Assembly (NCBI GenBank): GCA_018606805.1
Contig: JAGYWI010000020.1
Coordinates: 1 to 43,289, forward strand
Source of the DNA: Candidatus Magnetomicrobium cryptolimnococcus
GTDB lineage: Bacteria; Nitrospirota; Thermodesulfovibrionia; Thermodesulfovibrionales; Magnetobacteriaceae
Direction of reading: 5' to 3'
DNA length: 43,289 nucleotides
Shown: piece after piece, positions 19,262 to 43,132 of the stretch
Layout of the letters: every line of letters begins with the position of its first letter
Position numbering within the stretch: position 1 is the first letter of the stretch
Notes under the pieces: generated by a model
What the model saw: only the letters and a program-made list of their open reading frames with translations
Database searches by the model: none
Told to the model about the DNA's origin: nothing
Position numbers and translations under genes: made by a program

Positions 19262-19846
19262 CTATCCAATCCATACTGTCTTTTTAAAATCCTTCATCCC
19301 TTCTACCAAATGATTAGTTGTTCCTCTAAAGCCAACCAACAAGCTATCCTCCAGACCGTAGTGTTTTAGACATGTGCCACAGGAAAATATTTCAACCCCC
19401 ATACTTTCGAGTCCTTTTAGGATTTTCAGGATTTCATTATCACTTGTTGTAATTTTTACACCGGTATTTAAGAAAAATATAGAATTTGGGATTTCACCCG
19501 TTACCTTCATAGTTTCAAACATACCTTTCATTAATATTTTACCAAGCTCTTCATCTCTACCGATTGCATGGCCTGCAACCACTAAAAATAATGACTTATC
19601 GGTATCGCTTGTTTCATTTGGCTGGGTGCTGCATTGAAAACCTTTAACTATTTTTATTTTCCAGTAATTATCAATTTTTTGAGTTTCGGCGTAAAGACCA
19701 CTTTTTTTAGCAAATCTAACTACATTATTGGAAGATGCCTCATTATCAACCAGGACATCCACTGTACCTTCCTCTATACTGTTAAGACCTTCTTCTGCCA
19801 TCATTACAGGTTTAGGGCAGCCAAGCCCCCTTGCATCAATCAACAT
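19262..19846 (-). CDS. YedF-like protein (TusA/SirA-like N-terminus with CPxP motif fused to a DsrE/DsrF-like domain)
   Basis: ARGLGCPKPVMMAEEGL is a TusA-type CPxP motif. The C-terminal half is DsrE-like with a conserved Cys (FSCGTCLKHYGL). Confidence 0.6.
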   Translation of the reverse strand: MLIDARGLGCPKPVMMAEEGLNSIEEGTVDVLVDNEASSNNVVRFAKKSGLYAETQKIDNYWKIKIVKGFQCSTQPNETSDTDKSLFLVVAGHAIGRDEELGKILMKGMFETMKVTGEIPNSIFFLNTGVKITTSDNEILKILKGLESMGVEIFSCGTCLKHYGLEDSLLVGFRGTTNHLVEGMKDFKKTVWIG

Positions 19847-19886
19847 ACTTTGGTTCCCCCATTGGTAGTTTTTAATAAAGAGGATA

Positions 19887-21392
19887 TTAATCCTGATGAC
19901 CGTTATCGGACATTGTTTGGATAAAATTATTTATGTAAAAGATTATCTCTGTTGAAAGCTCTGTGAATTGACATCCAAACAATAAATAATCGTATGTTTC
20001 GCTTATATTTTTTATATTAAACTGTAAATTTTCAATAGTTTTATCTAATATTCTAAACGTCAGATAGTAATCTTTATTTATGCTATACCCTTTATAGTTG
20101 GCTTTGGGTAATTTTAACATGCAGCCTGCTGTACTTATATTTATTATGATAACTTCTGTTGTAGTTATGTGTTCCATATCAAATATGATAGCAAGTATAT
20201 TGGCTTGGAATCTGTTTTCTTTTCTTTTTAGTGTTTTTTGCCTTTTAAAAATACCGTAGCCCCACAGTTGATGACGATTGATTGCAACGTAGAATCGTTC
20301 AGAGGGTATGACCTCAACGATATTATATGCGTTATCTGAGGTATCTCTGCGAAGTGGTATCATAGAACGATAGCCGTTTGAACGCACAACAATGTGCACG
20401 ATAGGCGTATACACTTTATTGCCGCGCTGGGTTACAACCCCCAGCTCGTTACTTTTAAGTTTAACGTATGACCCGGGCGGGTATATCCCCAGGTTTTTGA
20501 CAAAGATATTAGCTAACTCTATTTCTGAGATTTTTTCACCTTCAAGGAATATCTGTCTTATTGCTGCATCTGGCAGTAGTGGAGGGCGATAATCTCTACC
20601 GCTAACCCTTGCACAATAAATATCAGCCATTTTGATAACCCGCGCAGGCTGCAATATAGCATCCCCTTGCAATCCAAAAGGATAGCCGCTTCCGTCGGCT
20701 GATTCATGATGCTGAAGGACTGATTCTAACCATATTTCATCCTTGATGCCATATTTGCGCAAGATTTCTAATCCTTTTTCAGGGTGTAAGTGTACTATTT
20801 TTTGTTGATTTTCGCTTAACTGTTCTTCTTGTTTTAAAAGTAAATCCTGCAGCTCTATCATACCTATATTCATAGTTATGGCAGCGCATATTGTGGACAA
20901 TCTTATCTCTTGGTTCCACCCGAGGGATTTGCCTATTATTTCACACACTATTGCTGTTTGCAGCGAATGTTTTACGGAGTAGCGTGTATTGTGGCTCATC
21001 ATAATAGTGCCAAGACACAGGTCCTCATCTTCTACGCATACTCTTTGGATAGTTTTCGCTATATTTACAAATTTAGGCTCAAACTCTGTCAGATTATTAA
21101 TATTATGAAAATAGTTATCCAGTTGTAAAAGGGCAAAGTCTATCAAGTCAAAAGGCGAATCCTCAGCTTCTACTACTACTTCTTCGGCCGATGGCTCTGT
21201 TGGTATGTTTTTATTATTTTCCCCTATTCCTTCTATTTCTAGGGAGTTTAAAATCTTCATCCGGTCTACATCTTTAAAGACAAAGCCTTTATTTAGCATA
21301 AGCTCACCGTGGTCATCCACCACAGGCTCTGTTATAGGCTCACCTACATTGATTTTCTGTTCCTTTATGCGTCTTGGTCTCATTTTTTCCAA
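19887..21392 (-). CDS. HD-GYP domain protein with C-terminal PilZ domain (c-di-GMP phosphodiesterase/receptor fusion)
   Basis: A HHESADGSGYPFGL GYP motif is present. The second HD-type metal-binding motif appears replaced (AITMNIGM where HDIGK is expected). C-terminal RKENR...NISTAGCML matches the PilZ RxxxR...(D/N)xSxxG motifs. Confidence 0.7.
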   Translation of the reverse strand: MEKMRPRRIKEQKINVGEPITEPVVDDHGELMLNKGFVFKDVDRMKILNSLEIEGIGENNKNIPTEPSAEEVVVEAEDSPFDLIDFALLQLDNYFHNINNLTEFEPKFVNIAKTIQRVCVEDEDLCLGTIMMSHNTRYSVKHSLQTAIVCEIIGKSLGWNQEIRLSTICAAITMNIGMIELQDLLLKQEEQLSENQQKIVHLHPEKGLEILRKYGIKDEIWLESVLQHHESADGSGYPFGLQGDAILQPARVIKMADIYCARVSGRDYRPPLLPDAAIRQIFLEGEKISEIELANIFVKNLGIYPPGSYVKLKSNELGVVTQRGNKVYTPIVHIVVRSNGYRSMIPLRRDTSDNAYNIVEVIPSERFYVAINRHQLWGYGIFKRQKTLKRKENRFQANILAIIFDMEHITTTEVIIINISTAGCMLKLPKANYKGYSINKDYYLTFRILDKTIENLQFNIKNISETYDYLLFGCQFTELSTEIIFYINNFIQTMSDNGHQD

Positions 21393-21407
21393 ATTCTTAA
21401 TGCTTAG

Positions 21408-22376
21408 TTAGGCATTTATTGCTGACTTTATTTCATCATCGAGGGTAATTTTATTACCACCGCCTTTTTTACTAATCTCCATCAACTGTTGAGCACGACT
21501 TCTTAGTTGAAATATAGTTTCCTTCTTTTTAGCAAGCGTTGCACCTATGGAAACAAATATTGGCACAGCCCTTTCGTTTACTTTATATTTACATGTTTCA
21601 GCTATTCTTCTTGAGCGCTCAGCTATTATTGGCAGCGTATCTTCATTGACATTTGCAAGTATCATTGTAAATTCCGACTCATCCCATCTGCTTATTGTAT
21701 CGTAGGGTCTTACGCTTTCAGCTAAGGCCCCAGCGACTATTTTTATTATACTATTTCCATGCACTTTACCGATAGTTGACGATATTCTTTCTATATGATC
21801 TATGCTAAGAAATATGAGACCAAAAGGCCATCCATACCTCATCCACTCATTAAATCTCGCCTTTAAATTTATCTCCGCATACTTCCTATTTCCAAGCTCT
21901 GTTAGAGGGTCTATCAAATTAAGGCTACGCAGTTTTGTAAACTGTCGCTCAAGTTTTATCTTTTCTGCATTTTCAATAAAAACAGCAATAGCCCCTAATC
22001 GCTGCCCTTTGTCGTCTTCTACAGGATTCACTTTTAGTATAACTGGGACTTTTTTCTTTTCCTTATTGTATAAAAACACTTCCTCTGTTTCTGGTACGCC
22101 ACTTAGCATCACCTTACTTATTAAATCATCACCATTACTTACATTTATACCCATTCCATCGGCATATCGTATAATCCCACTAAAATAATCCTTTCCAACC
22201 ACGTCAGATATATCATACCCTACTAGCTTTTCGGCTTCTTTATTCCAGTATCGTATAATCATCTGCTTATCAACAAACAGTACTGCTTGCAGTTGACTAT
22301 CAATCAATAGTTTATAAAAATTATTTTCCTCTATGTTATCCATATTCATCATCTTCCTACTTAACACACAACACAC
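21408..22376 (-). CDS. PAS-GGDEF-like protein with a degenerate active site (SRWDESEF in place of GGDEF)
   Basis: N-terminal PAS-like fold. The GGDEF-domain scaffold is conserved (DPLTELGNRKY, Ploop-like region) but the signature reads RWDESEF. Confidence 0.65.
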   Translation of the reverse strand: MCCVLSRKMMNMDNIEENNFYKLLIDSQLQAVLFVDKQMIIRYWNKEAEKLVGYDISDVVGKDYFSGIIRYADGMGINVSNGDDLISKVMLSGVPETEEVFLYNKEKKKVPVILKVNPVEDDKGQRLGAIAVFIENAEKIKLERQFTKLRSLNLIDPLTELGNRKYAEINLKARFNEWMRYGWPFGLIFLSIDHIERISSTIGKVHGNSIIKIVAGALAESVRPYDTISRWDESEFTMILANVNEDTLPIIAERSRRIAETCKYKVNERAVPIFVSIGATLAKKKETIFQLRSRAQQLMEISKKGGGNKITLDDEIKSAINA

Positions 22377-22650
22377 CCATTACAAAGGTCCCAAAATACT
22401 ATCTGACGCACTATCTGCGACATTATCATTGTGATTTACATTGATTAAACAACTATCTATGATTTACAATCAATCATATTTGCTTTTATAAAAATAGACG
22501 CCACGCAGCACCTCTTAACTTAAAAATTACCTAAAACTCTAATTATAGTATATAATATTCTAATATTATGCGTCAAGTAAAATTTTTATTTACACATATT
22601 GATAATATATTAGTGAAATTAGAGCCCCATTCTAAATAGGTGTTATTAAT

Positions 22651-22679
22651 AAGAAAGAGGTATTGAGAACCTCTCTCTT
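22651..22679 (-). terminator. Candidate terminator hairpin after the adhesin gene (AAGAGAGAGG-loop-CCTCTTTCTT on the transcribed strand)
   Basis: A 10-bp stem with one mismatch lies 18 nt downstream of the 22697 stop. It is followed on the minus strand by an A/U-rich stretch. Confidence 0.35.
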
Positions 22680-22696
22680 ATTAAATATTATAAACA

Positions 22697-25600
22697 TTAC
22701 TTAATCTCTATCTTACTTTGAGCAGTTGTAAACTGCACATTGATAACTACTAATCCTATATCAATAATAGCTTTAGGGTCAGTTGCAAGAGACGATATTT
22801 TATTCGAGTCTACAAAGCCAGTAGCATGATATTTACCGTTTGAACAGTTAATATCTGATTTATTAGTAACCAACCCCACATCTACTAACGTACCATCGGA
22901 GTTTTCAAGAAGAAGTTTAGTTGTAACATTCATGGTATTACCCGTACAATCAATACCTGTAACGTCAGCCTTAATCTGTGTTTCACCATTTTTGAAGACC
23001 ACATGTGCTTTTATGTCAGACATAGCACTTTCTTTTTGTACCTCAGCCTGTGCGTTAGCATCAGCAGCAGCATCTGTATCTGTTTTTACATCAGATTCCG
23101 AAGGGGTATCGTCAAAGTTTATTTTAAATTTAGATATAGTAAATGGATTGTTATTTGGTTTACCTGTATCTGTCCCTGTTGTAAAACCAAATTTGATTGT
23201 AGACATAGTGTCATAGTGCATATAAAAACACTTATCTATAAAAGGTGATTCATCTAAATAATCTGTTGACAACTTGTTACTATCTGGCGCGTCAATCCAT
23301 ACCTTATATTCAGCATAGTTTCCAGCACCGGTATCGCAATTACTACATGTATTGCCACCATCTGGGCTTGCACACCCTGTATGAAGTTCTATCCTAACTG
23401 TGTGCAAGTTGGCATCTTCAAGCCATATAGGTCCAGTAGTACCATTTTTATGGCAACACCCTGACCAACAAGTATAGTTCCCGCTATCAGCCGTTGGTGG
23501 ACAAAGTGGATTTGCAGGCAGCGATATAACTGTATGGTTATTATTACCATTAAAAACCATTGCCACATGATTTTTTTCTAAACCATAGTACTGTGATGAC
23601 TCATAATAAAAATCCTTTGTCCCAGAATCTGGATACATATCAAATTCCAAACCCAAACTGTATCCACCTATATTATTACCTACACTATTATTCTTCCTAC
23701 CATAACCAAGGCCATTACCAGGTCCTCCACAAGTGCTCACTGCCCTTTCGCCCTCAATCATAGCAAATACAAAACCACCTTTATAGTCTGTGCTATTTAA
23801 GCTGCTATCACCATCATCGGATTCATCGTCGTCATCGGACTTTTTGTCTTTATCGCTTTTATCTTTATCGGAGTCCTTATCGTCATCATCGTCATGCTCC
23901 GATAATTTGCTTTTATCTTTATCAGTCTTGTTTTTGTCATCATCGTCATCATCGTCATGCTCTGATAATTTGCTTTTATCTTTATCAGTTTTGTTTTTGT
24001 CATCATCGTCATCGGATTTTTTGTCTTTATCGCTTTTATCCTTATCGGAGTCCTTATCGTCGTCATCGTCATGCTCCGATAATTTGCTTTTATCCTTATC
24101 AGTCTTGTTTTTGTCATCATCATCGTCATCGGACTTTTTGTCTTTATCGCTTTTATCCTTATCAGTTTTGTTTTTGTCATCATCGTCATCATCGGATTTT
24201 TTGTCTTTATCGCTTTTATCCTTATCGGAGTCCTTATCGTCGTCATCGTCATGCTCCGATAATTTGCTTTTATCCTTATCAGTCTTGTTTTTGTCATCAT
24301 CATCGTCATCATCGGACTTTTTGTCTTTATCGCTTTTATCCTTATCAGTCTTGTTTTTGTCATCATCGTCATCATCGGATTTTTTGTCTTTATCGCTTTT
24401 ATCTTTATCGGAGTCCTTGTCGTCGTCATCGTCATGTTCTGATAATTTGCTTTTATCTTTATCAGTCTTGTTTTTGTCGTCATCGTCATCGTCGGATTTT
24501 TTGTCTTTATCGCTTTTATCTTTATCGGAGTCCTTGTCGTCGTCATCGTCATGTTCTGATAATTTGCTTTTATCTTTATCAGTCTTGTTTTTGTCGTCAT
24601 CGTCATCGTCGGATTTTTTGTCTTTATCGCTTTTATCTTTATCGGAGTCCTTGTCGTCATCATCGTCATGCTCCGATAATTTGCTTTTATCTTTATCAGT
24701 TTTGTTTTTGTCATCATCATCGTCATCATCGGACTTTTTGTCTTTATCGCTTTTATCCTTATCGGAGTCCTTATCGTCGTCATCGTCATGCTCCGATAAT
24801 TTGCTTTTATCCTTATCAGTCTTGTTTTTGTCATCATCATCGTCATCATCGGACTTTTTGTCTTTATCGCTTTTATCTTTATCGGAGTCCTTATCGTCAT
24901 CATCGTCATGCTCCGATAATTTGCTTTTATCTTTATCAGTCTTGTTTTTGTCATCATCGTCATCATCGGACTTTTTGTCTTTATCGCTTTTATCTTTATC
25001 GGAGTCCTTATCATCGTCATCGTCATGCTCCGATAATTTGCTTTTATCTTTATCAGTCTTGTTTTTGTCATCATCGTCATCATCGGACTTTTTGTCTTTA
25101 TCGCTTTTATCTTTATCGGAGTCCTTATCGTCATCATCGTCATGCTCCGATAATTTGCTTTTATCTTTATCAGTTTTGTTTTTGTCATCATCGTCATCAT
25201 CGGACTTTTTGTCTTTATCGCTTTTATCTTTATCGGAGTCCTTATCGTCATCATCGTCATGCTCCGATAATTTGCTTTTATCTTTATCAGTCTTGTTCTT
25301 GTCATCATCATCATCATCGGATTTTTTGTCTTTATCGCTTTTATCTTTATCGGAGTCCTTATCATCGTCATCATCGGTCGTATCTTTACCATTTTTATCA
25401 GAATCCTTATCTTTGCTATCTTTACCGGCTTTATCAGAATCATCATCGGACATTGTATTTTTCAGAAATTTATCAAAATCATCATCACTGTCTGAATCAT
25501 TATCATCTTTACTGCTATCATTACTTTTTGTTTCACTTTCGGCATAAGCCGCCTGCATCTCAAAATATATCCTTGTAGTTTTATCTTTTATCGGACATGA

Positions 25601-26707
25601 AGTTGCTGAACACGGTGAAACAGTATTTTGTCCATCTGGAAACCACACACATCCCCACAAATCATTTGCGTTGACACTCTGCTCAGTTGATTCCTCACCA
25701 ACCTTTAAAGTTTTAGAACTAGTATCTTTCGTTATAGCCGAACTATAACCTTCATATTCTGCAAAATGCTCAAGCGCTTCATCAAAAGAAATCTCCGAAT
25801 CATTAGAACCACCATCATCATCACCTCCCCCCTCACTACAATTAGTGTTCACTGCAAGGGATAGTGTCCTTTTAGCGGTATTTGCTATTGGCGAGTCGCT
25901 ATCCATCACCATCAGTGTAACTTGCGTTGATGGAGCCGTTGCCGCAGAAGCGGAGCCTAACTGCACGTTGGCATATGGCGTTGACCACGTTGGACAAGTA
26001 GTAGAAGGCATTACTGATAACCAGCTCGGTACAGAACCTTCTATACACCATTTATAATTAGTCTCATTAAATGGCACACCACCTTCGGCGTAAATAATAG
26101 CTGCATAATTCGTACTGCCGACACAAACGCTTGGTAGCTCATTATTTAATATTATGAGTTTTCCTCTTGTTTTACCATAACAACCTATTTTTTGCTGCAA
26201 ATCCTGCAGGCTCAAATATTGATACACATCACTGGTACTTAGGCTTACAGTTGTAAATGAGGTAATACCTTGTTCCGAAGCAGATGAGATATTTGTAGAA
26301 TTTAGCGCCGTATCCTCCCCTTTACTTATAATGGCGACAGCTACGGCTTTACTTTCCCCTGATACGGATAAGACCGTATTACTGTTTCCACAAATGTTAT
26401 TCGTGGATGCAAGCTCATTTGCATATACATATATTAGGGGTTGATTATATTTATCGTTTTTTACAATAATGGAAGTTGGCAGCTTCTTATTTTCAGTTGC
26501 ATAACTTATAATATAATTAATATTATCTCCAATAACGTCTGAGGTAGCAGTTATAACCCCTTTTTTCGTTTTTGGTGTAACCGACATAAGCCCTATGCTT
26601 GTTACAACAATCAAAAGCCCTAACGCTACAATTAAACCTATGCTGCCGGCTCTATTTGTAATATAACTTTCCATATGTTTTATTTTTTTATAGTAATTTA
26701 TAAGCAT
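22697..26707 (-). CDS. Giant modular pilin-like adhesin (1336 aa): N-terminal TM helix + pilin-paralogue module, ~530-aa poly-acidic D/K/S tandem-repeat stalk, L-type (legume-like) lectin domain, C-terminal beta domain
   Basis: The first ~300 aa are clearly paralogous to the adjacent 309-aa pilin (IISYATENKKLPTS / IIGYTAQNKRLPTS; STNNICG; KIGCYGKTRGKLIILNNELP...STNYAAIIYAEGG / QIGCSGEPLRIINNELP...GTNYNAAIYVEGG; YKWCIEGS / YKWCLDTS). The lectin block GGFVFAMIEGE...GGYSLGLEFDMYPDSG...KNHVAMVFNGNNNH...IKFGFTTGTDTG matches the legume-lectin signatures (GGxLGLF; VAVEFDTxxN...DP..HIGIDVNS; VGFSATTG). Confidence 0.8.
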   Translation of the reverse strand: MLINYYKKIKHMESYITNRAGSIGLIVALGLLIVVTSIGLMSVTPKTKKGVITATSDVIGDNINYIISYATENKKLPTSIIVKNDKYNQPLIYVYANELASTNNICGNSNTVLSVSGESKAVAVAIISKGEDTALNSTNISSASEQGITSFTTVSLSTSDVYQYLSLQDLQQKIGCYGKTRGKLIILNNELPSVCVGSTNYAAIIYAEGGVPFNETNYKWCIEGSVPSWLSVMPSTTCPTWSTPYANVQLGSASAATAPSTQVTLMVMDSDSPIANTAKRTLSLAVNTNCSEGGGDDDGGSNDSEISFDEALEHFAEYEGYSSAITKDTSSKTLKVGEESTEQSVNANDLWGCVWFPDGQNTVSPCSATSCPIKDKTTRIYFEMQAAYAESETKSNDSSKDDNDSDSDDDFDKFLKNTMSDDDSDKAGKDSKDKDSDKNGKDTTDDDDDKDSDKDKSDKDKKSDDDDDDKNKTDKDKSKLSEHDDDDDKDSDKDKSDKDKKSDDDDDDKNKTDKDKSKLSEHDDDDDKDSDKDKSDKDKKSDDDDDDKNKTDKDKSKLSEHDDDDDKDSDKDKSDKDKKSDDDDDDKNKTDKDKSKLSEHDDDDDKDSDKDKSDKDKKSDDDDDDDKNKTDKDKSKLSEHDDDDDKDSDKDKSDKDKKSDDDDDDDKNKTDKDKSKLSEHDDDDDKDSDKDKSDKDKKSDDDDDDKNKTDKDKSKLSEHDDDDDKDSDKDKSDKDKKSDDDDDDKNKTDKDKSKLSEHDDDDDKDSDKDKSDKDKKSDDDDDDKNKTDKDKSDKDKKSDDDDDDDKNKTDKDKSKLSEHDDDDDKDSDKDKSDKDKKSDDDDDDKNKTDKDKSDKDKKSDDDDDDKNKTDKDKSKLSEHDDDDDKDSDKDKSDKDKKSDDDDDKNKTDKDKSKLSEHDDDDDDDKNKTDKDKSKLSEHDDDDDKDSDKDKSDKDKKSDDDDESDDGDSSLNSTDYKGGFVFAMIEGERAVSTCGGPGNGLGYGRKNNSVGNNIGGYSLGLEFDMYPDSGTKDFYYESSQYYGLEKNHVAMVFNGNNNHTVISLPANPLCPPTADSGNYTCWSGCCHKNGTTGPIWLEDANLHTVRIELHTGCASPDGGNTCSNCDTGAGNYAEYKVWIDAPDSNKLSTDYLDESPFIDKCFYMHYDTMSTIKFGFTTGTDTGKPNNNPFTISKFKINFDDTPSESDVKTDTDAAADANAQAEVQKESAMSDIKAHVVFKNGETQIKADVTGIDCTGNTMNVTTKLLLENSDGTLVDVGLVTNKSDINCSNGKYHATGFVDSNKISSLATDPKAIIDIGLVVINVQFTTAQSKIEIK
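23800..25400. repeat. Intragenic near-perfect tandem repeat, ~13 units of 117 bp (39 aa: KDSDKDKSDKDKKSDDDDDDKNKTDKDKSKLSEHDDDDD) with shorter 63-bp variants
   Basis: Units are nearly identical at the nucleotide level (gataatttgcttttatctttatcagtcttgtttttgtcatcatcgtcatc... recurs). The repeat generates long stop-free artefactual ORFs in other frames. Confidence 0.9.
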
Positions 26708-26732
26708 AAAATATATTACCTCCTATTATAGT

Positions 26733-27662
26733 CTATGTAGGATTAAGGGTAAGTACAAACGTTTTTTCCGAGCAGTTACCATCACCATCTCTGACAAAAA
26801 CCTTTATTCTATAAGAGCCTGTTTGTGAATTACTTGAGCCAGCTCCTATTATCTGTACATTACTTGCACTTGCCCACGTAGTGTCAACCGATGATGAGCA
26901 GTTGGCCGGCACTACACAGCCGGGTGTTGGGTCTGTATAGCCACCCGGATAATTTGAAGTATCCAAACACCACTTATACATAGAAGTGTTTGAACCGCCT
27001 TCAACGTATATGGCGGCATTATAATTAGTTCCAGCATACCCATACGGTAGCTCATTATTTATAATGCGTAGCGGCTCACCAGAACAGCCTATTTGTGTCC
27101 TTAGCTCTCCAAGTGTTGTCCATATTACGATGTCATCATACGTAGTATCACCTATTTTTTCATTCTTATACACCATAATAGGGCTACTTGATGTATTTGT
27201 TTCAAGTATATAATCGCTGCCATTACTTGCAGCAAGGAAGGCTATGTTTTTTATATCAACATAATCAACGTTAGCAGTGCCAGAGGCACAGTTTGAGTTA
27301 TCTATACAACTGCGCACCGTTACAGACGTTGTCTTTCTACCGCATATGTTATTTGTGCTTCCAAGCGTGCTATCAATCAAATAAAGCAGATTTTGGTTCC
27401 ACCCATCTATCGCCTTTGTAACTACCCCTTTAAATTCGCTTGAAGTGGGTAATCTTTTGTTTTGTGCCGTATAACCAATAACAGACTCACGTGCAGCATC
27501 TACGATATTTTTGGTTTTATTGACATTTTGCATATCTATTAGAGGGCCTAATAGATTAGCCCCCATGCCAAGGATAATACCAACGATGACCAACACAACG
27601 GCCATTTCTATCAGGGTTAAACCGTCTTGTAAACGCAACACTACTTTGCCTTGCTTAAACAT
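26733..27662 (-). CDS. Type IV pilin-like protein (309 aa) with class III signal peptide
   Basis: The N-terminus LQDG-LTLIEMAVVLVIVGIILGMG is a prepilin cleavage/methylation motif (G|xTLIE with Glu at +5). A long globular domain with several Cys pairs follows. It is paralogous to the N-terminal third of the downstream giant protein. Confidence 0.8.
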   Translation of the reverse strand: MFKQGKVVLRLQDGLTLIEMAVVLVIVGIILGMGANLLGPLIDMQNVNKTKNIVDAARESVIGYTAQNKRLPTSSEFKGVVTKAIDGWNQNLLYLIDSTLGSTNNICGRKTTSVTVRSCIDNSNCASGTANVDYVDIKNIAFLAASNGSDYILETNTSSSPIMVYKNEKIGDTTYDDIVIWTTLGELRTQIGCSGEPLRIINNELPYGYAGTNYNAAIYVEGGSNTSMYKWCLDTSNYPGGYTDPTPGCVVPANCSSSVDTTWASASNVQIIGAGSSNSQTGSYRIKVFVRDGDGNCSEKTFVLTLNPT

Positions 27663-27743
27663 TTAGTCCCCCCCCAGTGACACTTAAATATATACACTTA
27701 TAAAATAGAATAAAAAAATATTAAAAATCAAGCAGTCAACAAA

Positions 27744-27798
27744 CAATTTTTAGGCAATTTTTAGGCAATTTTTAGGCAATTTTTAGGCAATTTTTAGG
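27744..27798. repeat. Perfect tandem repeat, 5 x 11 bp (CAATTTTTAGG)
   Basis: 27744-27798 lies ~80 bp upstream of the 309-aa pilin start. It sits between the small pilin gene and the pilin-lectin pair. Confidence 0.9.
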
Positions 27799-27813
27799 AT
27801 AACTTCGGGGTTG

Positions 27814-27837
27814 AGGGGAGCCTCATAGGTCTCCCCC
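27814..27837 (-). terminator. REP-type hairpin (GGGGAGCC-TCAT-AGGTCTCCCC) immediately 3-prime of the small pilin gene; probable terminator
   Basis: It lies 28 nt after the 27865 stop. It belongs to the same family as the GGGAGCCCCCATGAGGCTCCC hairpins beside gyrA. Confidence 0.4.
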
Positions 27838-27864
27838 TACGCAGTTTTACTGATTATCTTATTG

Positions 27865-28440
27865 TTACCACACCCTTACAGAGGCATCCCGGTTTGAGCC
27901 AGTTAATCCATTACACACGGCTGCGTTACCGGCGGCATCAGTATAGTCATCATTGCCTGGAGTCGCTCCATCGCCTCGTACGTAACCCGTTGTGTTATAA
28001 CCGTCATCAAGGGTTATGTCAAGAATACATAAGGTTTGATCTATGCCGTTATCAGTGTGCACACATTTCATACCAGAGCTTGTACTATATGTGTCTTCTG
28101 TATAGCCGGAGTTTGAGCTACCTGTACAATTTTGTAATGCCCACGTTGTGCCATCTGAAAATGTGAAATCATTTGAAGAAACACCACCTTCTGTAACCAA
28201 TGCTGATTGACTGGCTGGTAATGAGCTGTATTTGGCATAATACGACGCCACAGCAGTTTGGATTTTATTAATTCTTTGTATATCAGCCTTCTTATTCGAT
28301 GTATCTATTAGCGATATACCTTTTACTGCCATACCAATAATTATTCCTATAACAACGAGCGCTATTGCAAGTTCAATCAACGTAAAACCACTACTTTTTG
28401 TAATTTGCATCCGATGCAAATACACACTAATCTTTTTCAT
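27865..28440 (-). CDS. Type IV pilin / pseudopilin (191 aa), candidate major subunit
   Basis: KSSG-FTLIELAIALVVIGIIIGMAVKG is a canonical prepilin peptidase motif (G|FTLIE). It is followed by a small Ser/Thr/Gly-rich globular domain with two Cys near the C-terminus (a D-region-like disulfide). Confidence 0.8.
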   Translation of the reverse strand: MKKISVYLHRMQITKSSGFTLIELAIALVVIGIIIGMAVKGISLIDTSNKKADIQRINKIQTAVASYYAKYSSLPASQSALVTEGGVSSNDFTFSDGTTWALQNCTGSSNSGYTEDTYSTSSGMKCVHTDNGIDQTLCILDITLDDGYNTTGYVRGDGATPGNDDYTDAAGNAAVCNGLTGSNRDASVRVW

Positions 28441-28638
28441 ATAAATTACCCCCCTTTCTTTCTATAGTTTATAACTTATAACCATAATCAGTACACTATT
28501 TTATAAAAAAATTTTAAAATAGTCAAAATATTTTTTATAGAAAACACCACTTTTATAGTTGAACTACTACTATTAATGCTCATAATAGCATATAATGTTA
28601 TATTTGATTGTACCAGATAAAAACAAGGATATAAACCA

Positions 28639-29682
28639 ATGAGCCTTTTAACCGAAGTACTTACAAAGATACAAGCAAGACATCCGAAACAAAAAGACGT
28701 GCACCCTGAACTAGTATCTATGCAAAAAGAGCGCAGAAAACGAAAGGCTCTTTATAAAAAAGCACTTATGCTTTCAGTCGGCTTGGTCATATTTGTGTTA
28801 TCAGGCCTCTTTGGGCTTTACTACTTAGGAAACTACAAACAAAAACTAATTGATAGCAACATAAAATTAAAACAGAACTTTGAACAGATACCAGTCCTCG
28901 ATAAAGCAACCACAGCTATACCAACCGTTGCTGCTGTTGCCCAGAACGAGCAACCACAATACATACAGGATTTTACACAATTTCAAAAAGAAACTATACA
29001 AGAAACTCCCATCTCACCAACCCCAACTTATAATAAAATAGAAACCAAACAGTTAGACCATCAAACAGCTGTGGCTGCAAAAAACAATACACAAGTAAAA
29101 ACAATCACAACAAATGAACCAAATAAACCACCTGCTAAAGATAAACAAACCTCAGACGATAAAAAAGCACCTGCCACCCAAAACACTATAGAACGAACAC
29201 CCGACAACACCGTCTTGACTCAGATTGAAATAGATAATCGAATTTACAGGGGGGAAGACTACGAAAAAAATAATCTGTTTAACGAAGCGGTTCATGAATA
29301 CGAGATAGCCTTTTCATTAGACACAAATAACTATAGGATTTTAAATAAACTTGTCTATTGTAATATGAAAGCAGGTAATTATAAAAAGGCCATTAATTAT
29401 GCCGAAACAGCCATTAAACTAAACAATGCCTACATACCACTACTTATAAACCTTGCTATTTCCTATGCGTCAGTGAAAAGATACGAGGAGGCAGAAAATA
29501 CATTTAAAATGGCCGTTGAAACCTCCCCCGGTAATTTAGATTTGCTTTATAATTTTGCCCTATTTTATGAAAAAATAAATAAGCCCAATAAAGCCCTTGA
29601 GATATACGAAACCCTATCAAAACAAGGCGATGCACGCGGACAACAAGGAATATTAAGAATTACATATACCCAAACAAATTAG
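28639..29682 (+). CDS. TPR-repeat protein with N-terminal membrane anchor and Pro/Thr/Gln-rich linker; divergent from the pilin gene
   Basis: It has a TM segment (ALMLSVGLVIFVLSGLFGLYYLG), a low-complexity linker, and C-terminal TPR-like helices (YEKNNLFNEAVHEYEIAFSLD...AINYAETAIKLN...). Confidence 0.55.
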   Translation: MSLLTEVLTKIQARHPKQKDVHPELVSMQKERRKRKALYKKALMLSVGLVIFVLSGLFGLYYLGNYKQKLIDSNIKLKQNFEQIPVLDKATTAIPTVAAVAQNEQPQYIQDFTQFQKETIQETPISPTPTYNKIETKQLDHQTAVAAKNNTQVKTITTNEPNKPPAKDKQTSDDKKAPATQNTIERTPDNTVLTQIEIDNRIYRGEDYEKNNLFNEAVHEYEIAFSLDTNNYRILNKLVYCNMKAGNYKKAINYAETAIKLNNAYIPLLINLAISYASVKRYEEAENTFKMAVETSPGNLDLLYNFALFYEKINKPNKALEIYETLSKQGDARGQQGILRITYTQTN

Positions 29683-43067: not shown

Positions 43068-43132
43068 CAGGGAGGTGTGCCTTCACACCAGGGAGGTGTG
43101 CCTTCACACCAGGGAGGTGTGCCTTCACACCC
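43068..43132. repeat. Second tandem array (3 units) of the 21-22-nt CAGGGAGGTGTGCCTTCACAC hairpin unit
   Basis: Same unit and the same trailing CTTGAAC(C/T)CCAAAA(A)CACCAT as the array at 17164-17370. It lies immediately 3-prime of rlmD. Confidence 0.85.

Follow-up and report, generated by a model that had tools for sequence, protein, structure and literature searches.

The stretch of DNA analyzed here (hereafter, the window) comprises 43,289 nucleotides of contig JAGYWI010000020.1 from Candidatus Magnetomicrobium cryptolimnococcus. The subject of this study is a single open reading frame (ORF) of 1336 amino acids (aa) on its minus strand, at positions 22697-26707, together with the acidic tandem repeat that it encodes. 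By translation, profile comparison, and structural modeling, the product is predicted to be a modular type IV minor pilin, composed of a pilin module, a beta domain, an L-type lectin module that is split in two by the repeat, and an extra C-terminal domain. All of these features are encoded on the minus strand. In the direction of translation, the gene begins with a leader and a hydrophobic N-terminal helix (26489-26707; aa 1-73), where NRAG followed directly by SIGLIVALGLLIVV resembles a class III signal peptide. It continues with a pilin head and a beta (Ig-like) domain (25835-26488; approximately aa 74-291), the N-terminal part of the lectin fold (25553-25798; approximately aa 304-385), the acidic insert (23798-25552; aa 386-970, approximately 585 residues), the C-terminal part of the lectin fold (23108-23797; approximately aa 971-1200), and the extra C-terminal domain (22700-23107; approximately aa 1201-1336, about 136 residues). 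An identical protein, P0002, is present in a public collection, where it originates from one NCBI contig of 59,090 bp.

The core of the insert is a homogeneous tandem array. Tandem Repeats Finder described it as a repeat of period 117 at 23942-25372 (12.1 copies, 87% matches, score 2059); a second description, with period 63, overlaps it at 23879-25319. Combining this output with codon-level parsing, which ran from 25360 down to 23825, we place the array at 23825-25360 (aa 450-961), and the near-identical in-frame tandem repeat reported in an earlier note on this DNA, at approximately 23800-25400, is thereby confirmed. Eight of its units are simple, with a length of 117 bp in six cases and 120 bp in two; three others, of 183, 180, and 177 bp, are compound, and a partial unit of 54 bp closes the array. 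At the peptide level it is built of three modules, namely A (KDSDKDK), B (SDKDKKS-D(4-7)-KNKTDKDK), and C (SKLSEH-D5), in the arrangement ABC (eight times), ABBC (twice), ABCC, and AB. With totals of 12 A, 14 B, and 12 C modules, the initial estimate of about 13 copies of a 117-bp unit was close. The lengths of the units and sub-units (117, 120, 63, 66, and 54 bp) are all multiples of three, and thus all length changes are in frame, as had been supposed. A 15-nt microhomology, GATAA[AG]GATAAAAGC, occurs 26 times in the array at spacings that alternate between 63/66 and 54 bp, and the sub-unit variants correspond to deletions or insertions of 54 bp or 63/66 bp, equal to modules C+A or to module B, between two of its copies. 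The 63-bp variants noticed previously are real but correspond to such changes, and therefore the missing peptide is 18 residues long and not 12.

The complete acidic insert exceeds the array on both sides. Between the N-terminal part of the lectin fold and the first unit lies a degenerate acidic leader of 64 aa (QAAYAESETKSNDSSKDDNDSDSDDDFDKFLKNTMSDDDSDKAGKDSKDKDSDKNGKDTTDDDDDK; 25361-25552, aa 386-449), which is seen in the translation, is not present in the ortholog P0001 described below, and probably represents old, diverged copies of the repeat. At the other end, a short acidic tail (ESDDGDSSL; 23798-23824, aa 962-970), delimited by alignment with P0001 and with the loop sequences of the family, runs into the ancestral end of the loop, NSTDY. 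Two further long ORFs overlap the array, one of 585 aa on the plus strand (23790-25547) and one of 549 aa in another frame of the minus strand (23797-25446). Both were rejected as shadow ORFs of the repeat, because only the frame of 22697-26707 reaches conserved domains on both sides. Such long stop-free shadow ORFs are a by-product of the codon composition of the repeat and could be mis-annotated as genes.

The composition of the insert is biased far beyond chance. Asp accounts for 45% of its residues, Lys for 27%, and Ser for 13%; the net charge is -123 and the fraction of charged residues is 0.74, with one Leu per unit and almost no hydrophobic residues. The kappa value of approximately 0.18, obtained with our own rough implementation, corresponds to well-mixed charges. 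An expanded disordered chain is predicted from this composition, which is that of a disordered polyanion and agrees with the disordered D/K-rich segment proposed earlier. A stiff spacer formed by a single alpha-helix of the ER/K type was considered and rejected, since the segment is rich in Asp and Ser and not in Glu and Arg; Asp and Ser have a low helix propensity.

The six 117-bp units differ from each other at 0-8 of 117 positions, units 7 and 8 being identical, and exact direct repeats within the array reach 167, 143, and 123 bp. There are 14 variable sites among the units, seven in the fixed modules and seven in the Asp runs, the latter counted manually from the listed run variants. All 14 are synonymous third-position transitions, and neither an amino-acid change nor a frameshift is seen in any unit over 1.5 kb. 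By chance, 14% of substitutions in the unit would be expected to be synonymous, or 34% if only transitions are considered, and the probability of 14 synonymous sites out of 14 is approximately 3e-7 or less; for the seven sites outside the Asp runs alone, the probability that all are synonymous is approximately 5e-4. Thus the variation among units speaks for purifying selection on the repeat peptide; it is evidence against a neutral expansion as well as against an assembly artifact. In addition, the sub-unit variants (ABBC and ABCC), the variable length of the Asp runs in the B modules (4-7 residues), and the identical neighboring units show that slippage or unequal recombination has occurred in the past. 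Together with the exact repeats of up to 167 bp, they bear out the proneness to unit gain and loss that had been suspected. Slippage and unequal recombination with partial homogenization would be expected to leave just such traces, namely a degenerate leader, variants distributed as a mosaic, duplicated sub-units, and Asp runs of variable length.

Assignment of the host protein required indirect methods. Direct sequence searches against Pfam and PDB gave no match for the window protein, P0001, the isolated lectin part, or the C-terminal domain, and it took a family profile and a structural model to identify the lectin and pilin parts. The family profile (A3) was built from 40 homologs and run against PDB. 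Its positions 13-86 match the type IV pilin structures 2hi2 (1.4e-5) and 1ay2 (2.9e-5), and the Pfam domain N_methyl is found in six of the 40 homologs. The first 287 residues of the adhesin, as we call the window protein here, are 32% identical over approximately 300 aa to the product of the upstream pilin ORF at 26733-27662 (BLASTP, E 3e-25); this 309-aa pilin is a paralog of the pilin and beta modules of the adhesin and has no lectin. The AlphaFold2 model of P0001, calculated with the family alignment (pLDDT 83), contains a helix at residues 23-73 followed by a pilin head, a beta domain at approximately 195-290, a low-confidence segment at 293-302 that forms the linker between pilin and lectin, and one beta-sandwich domain at 305-627. 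The top 50 PDB matches of this last domain in a Foldseek search are all legume lectins, aligned over whole chains, with E down to 4.8e-8 and TM scores of 0.6-0.69 normalized to the target.

The same identification follows from the family profile, which matches the bacterial legume-like lectin 7elv_E (1.2e-12), the legume lectins 1lgc, 1loa, and 1lof (approximately 6e-6 to 9e-6), as well as peanut lectin, favin, and others. Individual Pfam matches among the 40 homologs are to Lectin_legB (10), Lectin_L-type_dom (8), and He_PIG (14). On the joint evidence of profile, Pfam, model, Foldseek, and paralogy, the host protein is therefore best described as a putative modular type IV minor pilin, in which an L-type lectin module has been grafted C-terminal to the pilin and beta domains. 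The pilus and lectin context suggested earlier is in agreement with the pilin operon and with the lectin fold of the host protein. The N-terminus of the window protein (NRAG followed by SIGLIVALGLLIVVTSIGLM) has no Glu at +5. By this missing Glu+5 and its bulky modules, the protein would most likely be the tip subunit of the pilus; the tip pseudopilin GspK is also without Glu5. For the extra C-terminal domain, which is delimited by alignment and is not present in P0001, no Pfam match and no tblastn trace in contig L001, the contig that encodes P0001, were found.

Modular pilins with a lectin module are exemplified by PilC of Streptococcus sanguinis (PMC9934059) and have been surveyed by Raynaud et al. 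(PMC8179133). As in the PilC-type modular pilins, the window gene lies beside other minor pilin genes and a tip adhesin is expected. In contrast to PilC, to which it has no detectable sequence relationship, the window protein belongs to a host that is probably a Nitrospirota-related diderm, and its lectin is of the legume (L-type) subtype with the loop-A Asp missing. We know of no described modular pilin with a 585-residue acidic repeat inside its lectin fold.

The position of the insert within the lectin is the key to its interpretation. In the window protein, the insert joins the strand RIYFEM, which ends the N-terminal part of the lectin fold (TTRIYFEM), to the strand YKGGFVF, with which the C-terminal part begins, according to the scheme RIYFEM-(585 aa)-NSTDYKGGFVF. 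The family profile aligns to legume lectins from positions 321-329 on and spans the insertion point, and it pairs the family motif ygDGFTF with nvADGFTF of the Lathyrus lectin. YKGGFVF thus occupies the position of the legume-lectin motif ADGFTF, and LEFDMYPD and NHVAM correspond to the metal-site motifs. In the P0001 model, strands 320-387 belong to the lectin domain, and strands 377-387 and 399-409 flank a short loop, 388-398, which is the insertion site. In legume lectins the ADGFTF position is loop A, which carries the sugar-binding Asp; this Asp of the ADG motif hydrogen-bonds the sugar. By homology and by the ortholog model, the insert is an intradomain loop immediately before loop A, beside the canonical sugar site, and not an interdomain spacer. 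The proposal in the earlier note that the repeat forms a stalk projecting the lectin from the pilus is not borne out, since the lectin profile spans the insertion point, the model places the insertion loop (388-398) within domain 305-627 and the linker at 293-302, and Foldseek aligns the domain containing the insertion site to whole legume lectins. The domain map is corrected accordingly, with a loop insert in place of a stalk.

The lectin module shares with legume lectins (for example, the Lathyrus ochrus isolectins 1loa and 1lgc and the bacterial 7elv) the beta-sandwich fold, the motifs xDGFTF, GxLGY, AVEFDxYxN, DP, and NHxA, and the Glu, Asp, and His metal ligands of ConA. It differs from them by the Gly in YKGGF, an Asp in place of the Asn of YPN, a rearranged metal loop, and the 585-residue insert before loop A. 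With the equivalents of ConA Glu8, Asp10, Asn14, Asp19, and His24 as reference, the metal-site Glu, Asp (EFD), and His (NH) are invariant in the 40 homologs and are kept in the window protein (LEFDMYPD...NHVAM); the metal-site Asn is replaced by Asp in the window protein, and the Asp of the DP motif is displaced in both the window protein and P0001. The loop-A Asp is present in 31 of the 40 homologs and is Gly (YKGGF) in the window protein and in P0001.

One relative of the window protein was found when 5.8 billion proteins were searched with its C-terminal part. This protein, P0001 (630 aa, 60-65% identity), is encoded on a 7.5-kb Logan contig, L001, where the gene order is identical to that in the window: pilin, pilin, adhesin, PAS-GGDEF, HD-GYP/PilZ, TusA/DsrE. 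In P0001 the sequence RVYFDM-ITDFVDGHAQSKD-YKGGFTF is continuous, with a 26-residue segment and no tandem repeat. A HMMER search of 1.84 billion cluster representatives with P0001 as the query yielded 256 homologs at E<1e-3, P0002 being one of them, and many of these are full-length relatives at 30-40% identity. In 57 other homologs the loop segment comprises 12-73 residues with a median of 26, a range that includes some rows without lectin motifs, which are misaligned there. The flanking strands are joined by 18-27 residues in the ortholog and in most homologs examined, and in the 40-sequence alignment the same loop, measured between fixed anchors, has 9-18 residues and is the most length-conserved of the module. 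The ancestral loop was already rich in Asp and Ser (xDTSxNSTxY). From these comparisons the repeat-less 26-residue state is ancestral; and since the loop is short in relatives and repeat-less in the syntenic ortholog, the acidic array is a lineage-specific expansion of a normally short loop.

Other lectin loops in the family carry inserts of up to 117, 164, and 208 residues. The sole other homolog with an insert in the same loop is P0089, where it is approximately 47 residues long and Cys-rich (73-residue segment). In P0082, P0017, P0106, P0015, P0030, and P0035, Cys-rich CTGTCNGT-like repeats or large beta segments are observed in other lectin loops. The lectin module thus seems to act as a scaffold for loop elaboration. 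The closest comparisons are P0082, P0106, P0035, and P0089. Like the window protein, they show that surface loops of this lectin scaffold can accommodate inserted repeats, but their inserts, of 47-208 residues, are either rich in Cys (CTGTCNGT-like) or folded beta segments; none of them is acidic or comes near 585 residues.

Searches for a second allele or a close relative of the array added little. The window protein and P0001 each form a single-member cluster, with no second allele. Pattern scans found no close relative of the adhesin in the representative genomes of GTDB, and in JGI metagenomes only a distant relative, L082, and none close. Three repeat units searched against the 5.8 billion proteins gave no significant match; this is a weak negative, since composition filters penalize such queries and the source protein itself was also not returned.

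The overall picture that we favor, with a probability of roughly 0.55, is an in-frame, lineage-specific expansion, maintained by selection, that has produced a giant polyanionic loop on the ligand face of the lectin of a tip pilin. Slippage during replication, or unequal recombination, would have made the array grow and would continue to resize it, acting between whole 117-bp units and, at the sub-unit level, between the microhomology copies placed every 54 or 63 bp. Because all gain and loss events are in frame, they would change the length of the loop and not its expression. Since both ends of the insert are fixed at neighboring points of the lectin, the product would be a large, expanded, highly negative loop enveloping the ligand face; as a loop with adjacent ends, it cannot extend the lectin and would instead cloud that face. 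Its size could be tuned by the number of units. Function is the least secure step of this scheme. Most likely the loop would bind divalent cations, or else cationic or mineral surfaces, with low affinity and high capacity, or it would be an electrosteric brush that alters which contacts the tip can make.

Binding of cations and minerals with low affinity but high capacity is a classic property of runs of 5-7 Asp, and oligo-Asp runs bind Ca2+ and mineral surfaces in calsequestrin, in Asp-rich biomineralization proteins, and in D6-D8 hydroxyapatite tags. Compared with such acidic binders (the calsequestrin tail, Aspein, Asprich, and oligo-Asp hydroxyapatite tags), the insert has the same runs of 5-7 Asp, very high negative charge, and predicted disorder. 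It differs in its lack of homology to them, its Lys content of 27%, and its bacterial pilus context, and cation or mineral binding is here a prediction.

Modular pilins are a recently recognized route to new binding functions on type IV pili. The favored reading adds a further layer to this picture, in that the grafted lectin module would itself have been reshaped through a very large repeat expansion in a loop next to the ligand site, with the outcome preserved by selection. Should the loop indeed bind cations or minerals, this uncultured environmental lineage would possess an unusual and tunable adhesion chemistry that is encoded in a protein.

Several points weigh against this reading of a selected polyanionic loop. 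We infer the function of the loop from its composition and position, and a regular-expression scan found canonical Ca2+ motifs (DxDxDG, RTX, EF-hand-like) to be essentially absent. The placement of the loop relative to the binding site comes via legume-lectin homology and the ortholog model. The window protein and the ortholog without the repeat both have Gly in place of the sugar-binding Asp; the sugar site may therefore be defunct, and the loop may then simply be free to expand. The N-terminus of the window protein itself does not reach the Pfam threshold for N_methyl, and among the scanned ORFs of the window no assembly ATPase, secretin, or prepilin peptidase was identified. Finally, a single contig from a single uncultured organism is the only known source of the array, and if this contig was assembled from short reads, the exact repeats of up to 167 bp could have led to a wrong copy number, which should not be trusted without long reads.

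A non-adaptive explanation is unlikely, namely that a slippage-prone loop rich in Asp, Ser, and Lys has ballooned by chance as low-complexity sequence and is merely tolerated in a lectin that has lost its sugar-binding Asp. The array is present in one genome, while the ortholog and more than 50 homologs are without it; the Asp/Ser-rich character of the loop predates the array, loop A has Gly in this clade, and other loops of the family also gather repeats. Such an expansion is opposed by the exclusively synonymous variation (14 of 14 sites, against the 14-34% expected), by the absence of any unit with an amino-acid change or frameshift over 1.5 kb, and by the intact frame and flanking fold.

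The loop could also be a contingency region, in which frequent in-frame gain and loss of units varies the exposed epitope at the tip or offers protection against phages, predators, or antibodies directed at the pilus tip. The peptide chemistry would then be secondary. The footprints of unit and sub-unit gain and loss fit this possibility, as do the long exact repeats, which suit both RecA-dependent and RecA-independent rearrangement, and the repeat and homopolymer run in the promoter-proximal spacer of the same operon (see below). An exposed location at the tip can be expected by analogy with modular pilins (PMC9934059). In-frame changes, however, alter the length of the loop and not its sequence, the strict conservation of the peptide suggests that the sequence itself matters, and with unit lengths that are all multiples of three, changes in unit number can alter length but not switch expression on and off. 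We consider this explanation unlikely, although it is compatible with a selected polyanionic loop and does not exclude it.

A bolder version, which we hold to be quite doubtful, assigns ligand binding to the acidic array itself: the lectin, its sugar-binding Asp lost, would now be a scaffold holding a 585-residue polyanionic "tentacle" at the pilus tip. Such a tentacle could tether an anaerobic Nitrospirota-like bacterium to positively charged minerals, such as iron oxyhydroxides or carbonates, or capture divalent metals, with an avidity tuned by the number of units.

It is very improbable that the repeat is a spacer between pilus and lectin whose length sets the projection of the lectin, as was proposed for the SD repeats of staphylococcal ClfA/Sdr proteins. 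In favor of such a role are its location between two conserved protein blocks and its repetitive, hydrophilic, Asp-rich composition, which resembles that of the SD regions; these have been proposed as wall-spanning spacers, and their repeat number varies, with 25-275 SD dipeptides per protein (PMC3794999). Like them, the window array belongs to a surface adhesin and is long, rich in Asp, low in complexity, and repetitive at the DNA level. However, the SD regions are made of dipeptide repeats, lie between the ligand-binding domain and the wall anchor, and are glycosylated, whereas the window unit has 39 residues, is Lys-rich, and is located within a folded domain; among the neighbors of the adhesin gene, no Sdg-like glycosyltransferase was seen. 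Moreover, both flanking blocks belong to one lectin domain, the real linker between pilin and lectin is the short low-confidence segment of the ortholog, and the flanking strands are so close in most homologs (18-27 residues) that the ends of the insert stay adjacent and extend nothing.

An assembly error that produced the array or altered its copy number is hardly credible: exact repeats of up to 167 bp within 1.5 kb are hard for short reads, and the array comes from a single contig and a single-member cluster, but it lies perfectly in frame between the halves of a conserved domain, the diverged 64-aa leader beside it indicates an evolutionary history, and the structured synonymous and sub-unit variants are not expected from an artifact, even if the copy number could still be off.

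Directly upstream of the adhesin, on the same strand, are two pilin genes with N_methyl domains, whose order is kept in L001. The first gene of the cluster (27865-28440) encodes a 191-aa pilin with the motif GFTLIEL (Pfam N_methyl, 1.3e-6), and the second (26733-27662) encodes the 309-aa minor pilin with the motif GLTLIEM (N_methyl, 5.3e-5); both are syntenic in L001. In the 202-bp spacer between them there is a perfect tandem repeat of five 11-bp copies (CAATTTTTAGG, plus strand) at 27744-27798, and a run of eight G residues (minus strand, 27668-27675) stops 5 nt short of the start codon (ATG) of the gene for the 309-aa pilin. Both elements are missing from the syntenic locus of L001. A regulatory or contingency role for the minor-pilin and adhesin genes is possible. 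A promoter and terminator scan of 22000-28700 performed no better than on shuffled sequence. Downstream of the adhesin, on the same strand, follow the PAS-GGDEF, HD-GYP+PilZ, and TusA-DsrE genes, at 19262-22376 (minus strand) in the window and at 4121-7259 in L001, and this conserved order suggests a link of the pilin cluster to c-di-GMP signaling.

The window as a whole is chromosomal, with gyrA, parAB, kdsB, pyrG, era, and recO, and has a GC content of approximately 38%. Among the matches listed for its GyrA, the identity to MAGs of Nitrospirota, Thermodesulfovibrionales, and Dissulfurispiraceae is 68-70%, and closer relatives may exist. Besides the array in the adhesin gene, it contains a 21-bp tandem repeat (CACACCAGGGAGGTGTGCCTT) with the palindromic ends CACACC/GGTGTG, which is found in intergenic positions at 17160-17357 (9.3 copies) and 43068-43131 (3 copies) and may be a REP-like or other dispersed element. 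A short in-frame tandem repeat with periods of 12, 24, and 36 bp (approximately 4.7 copies of 24 bp) lies at 123-270, inside a small ORF at 8-436. Finally, an 820-aa ORF on the plus strand (14620-17082) matches the Pfam domains MVP_shoulder (1e-25) and Vault_3 (4e-8), and thus encodes a protein resembling the major vault protein in a bacterial genome.

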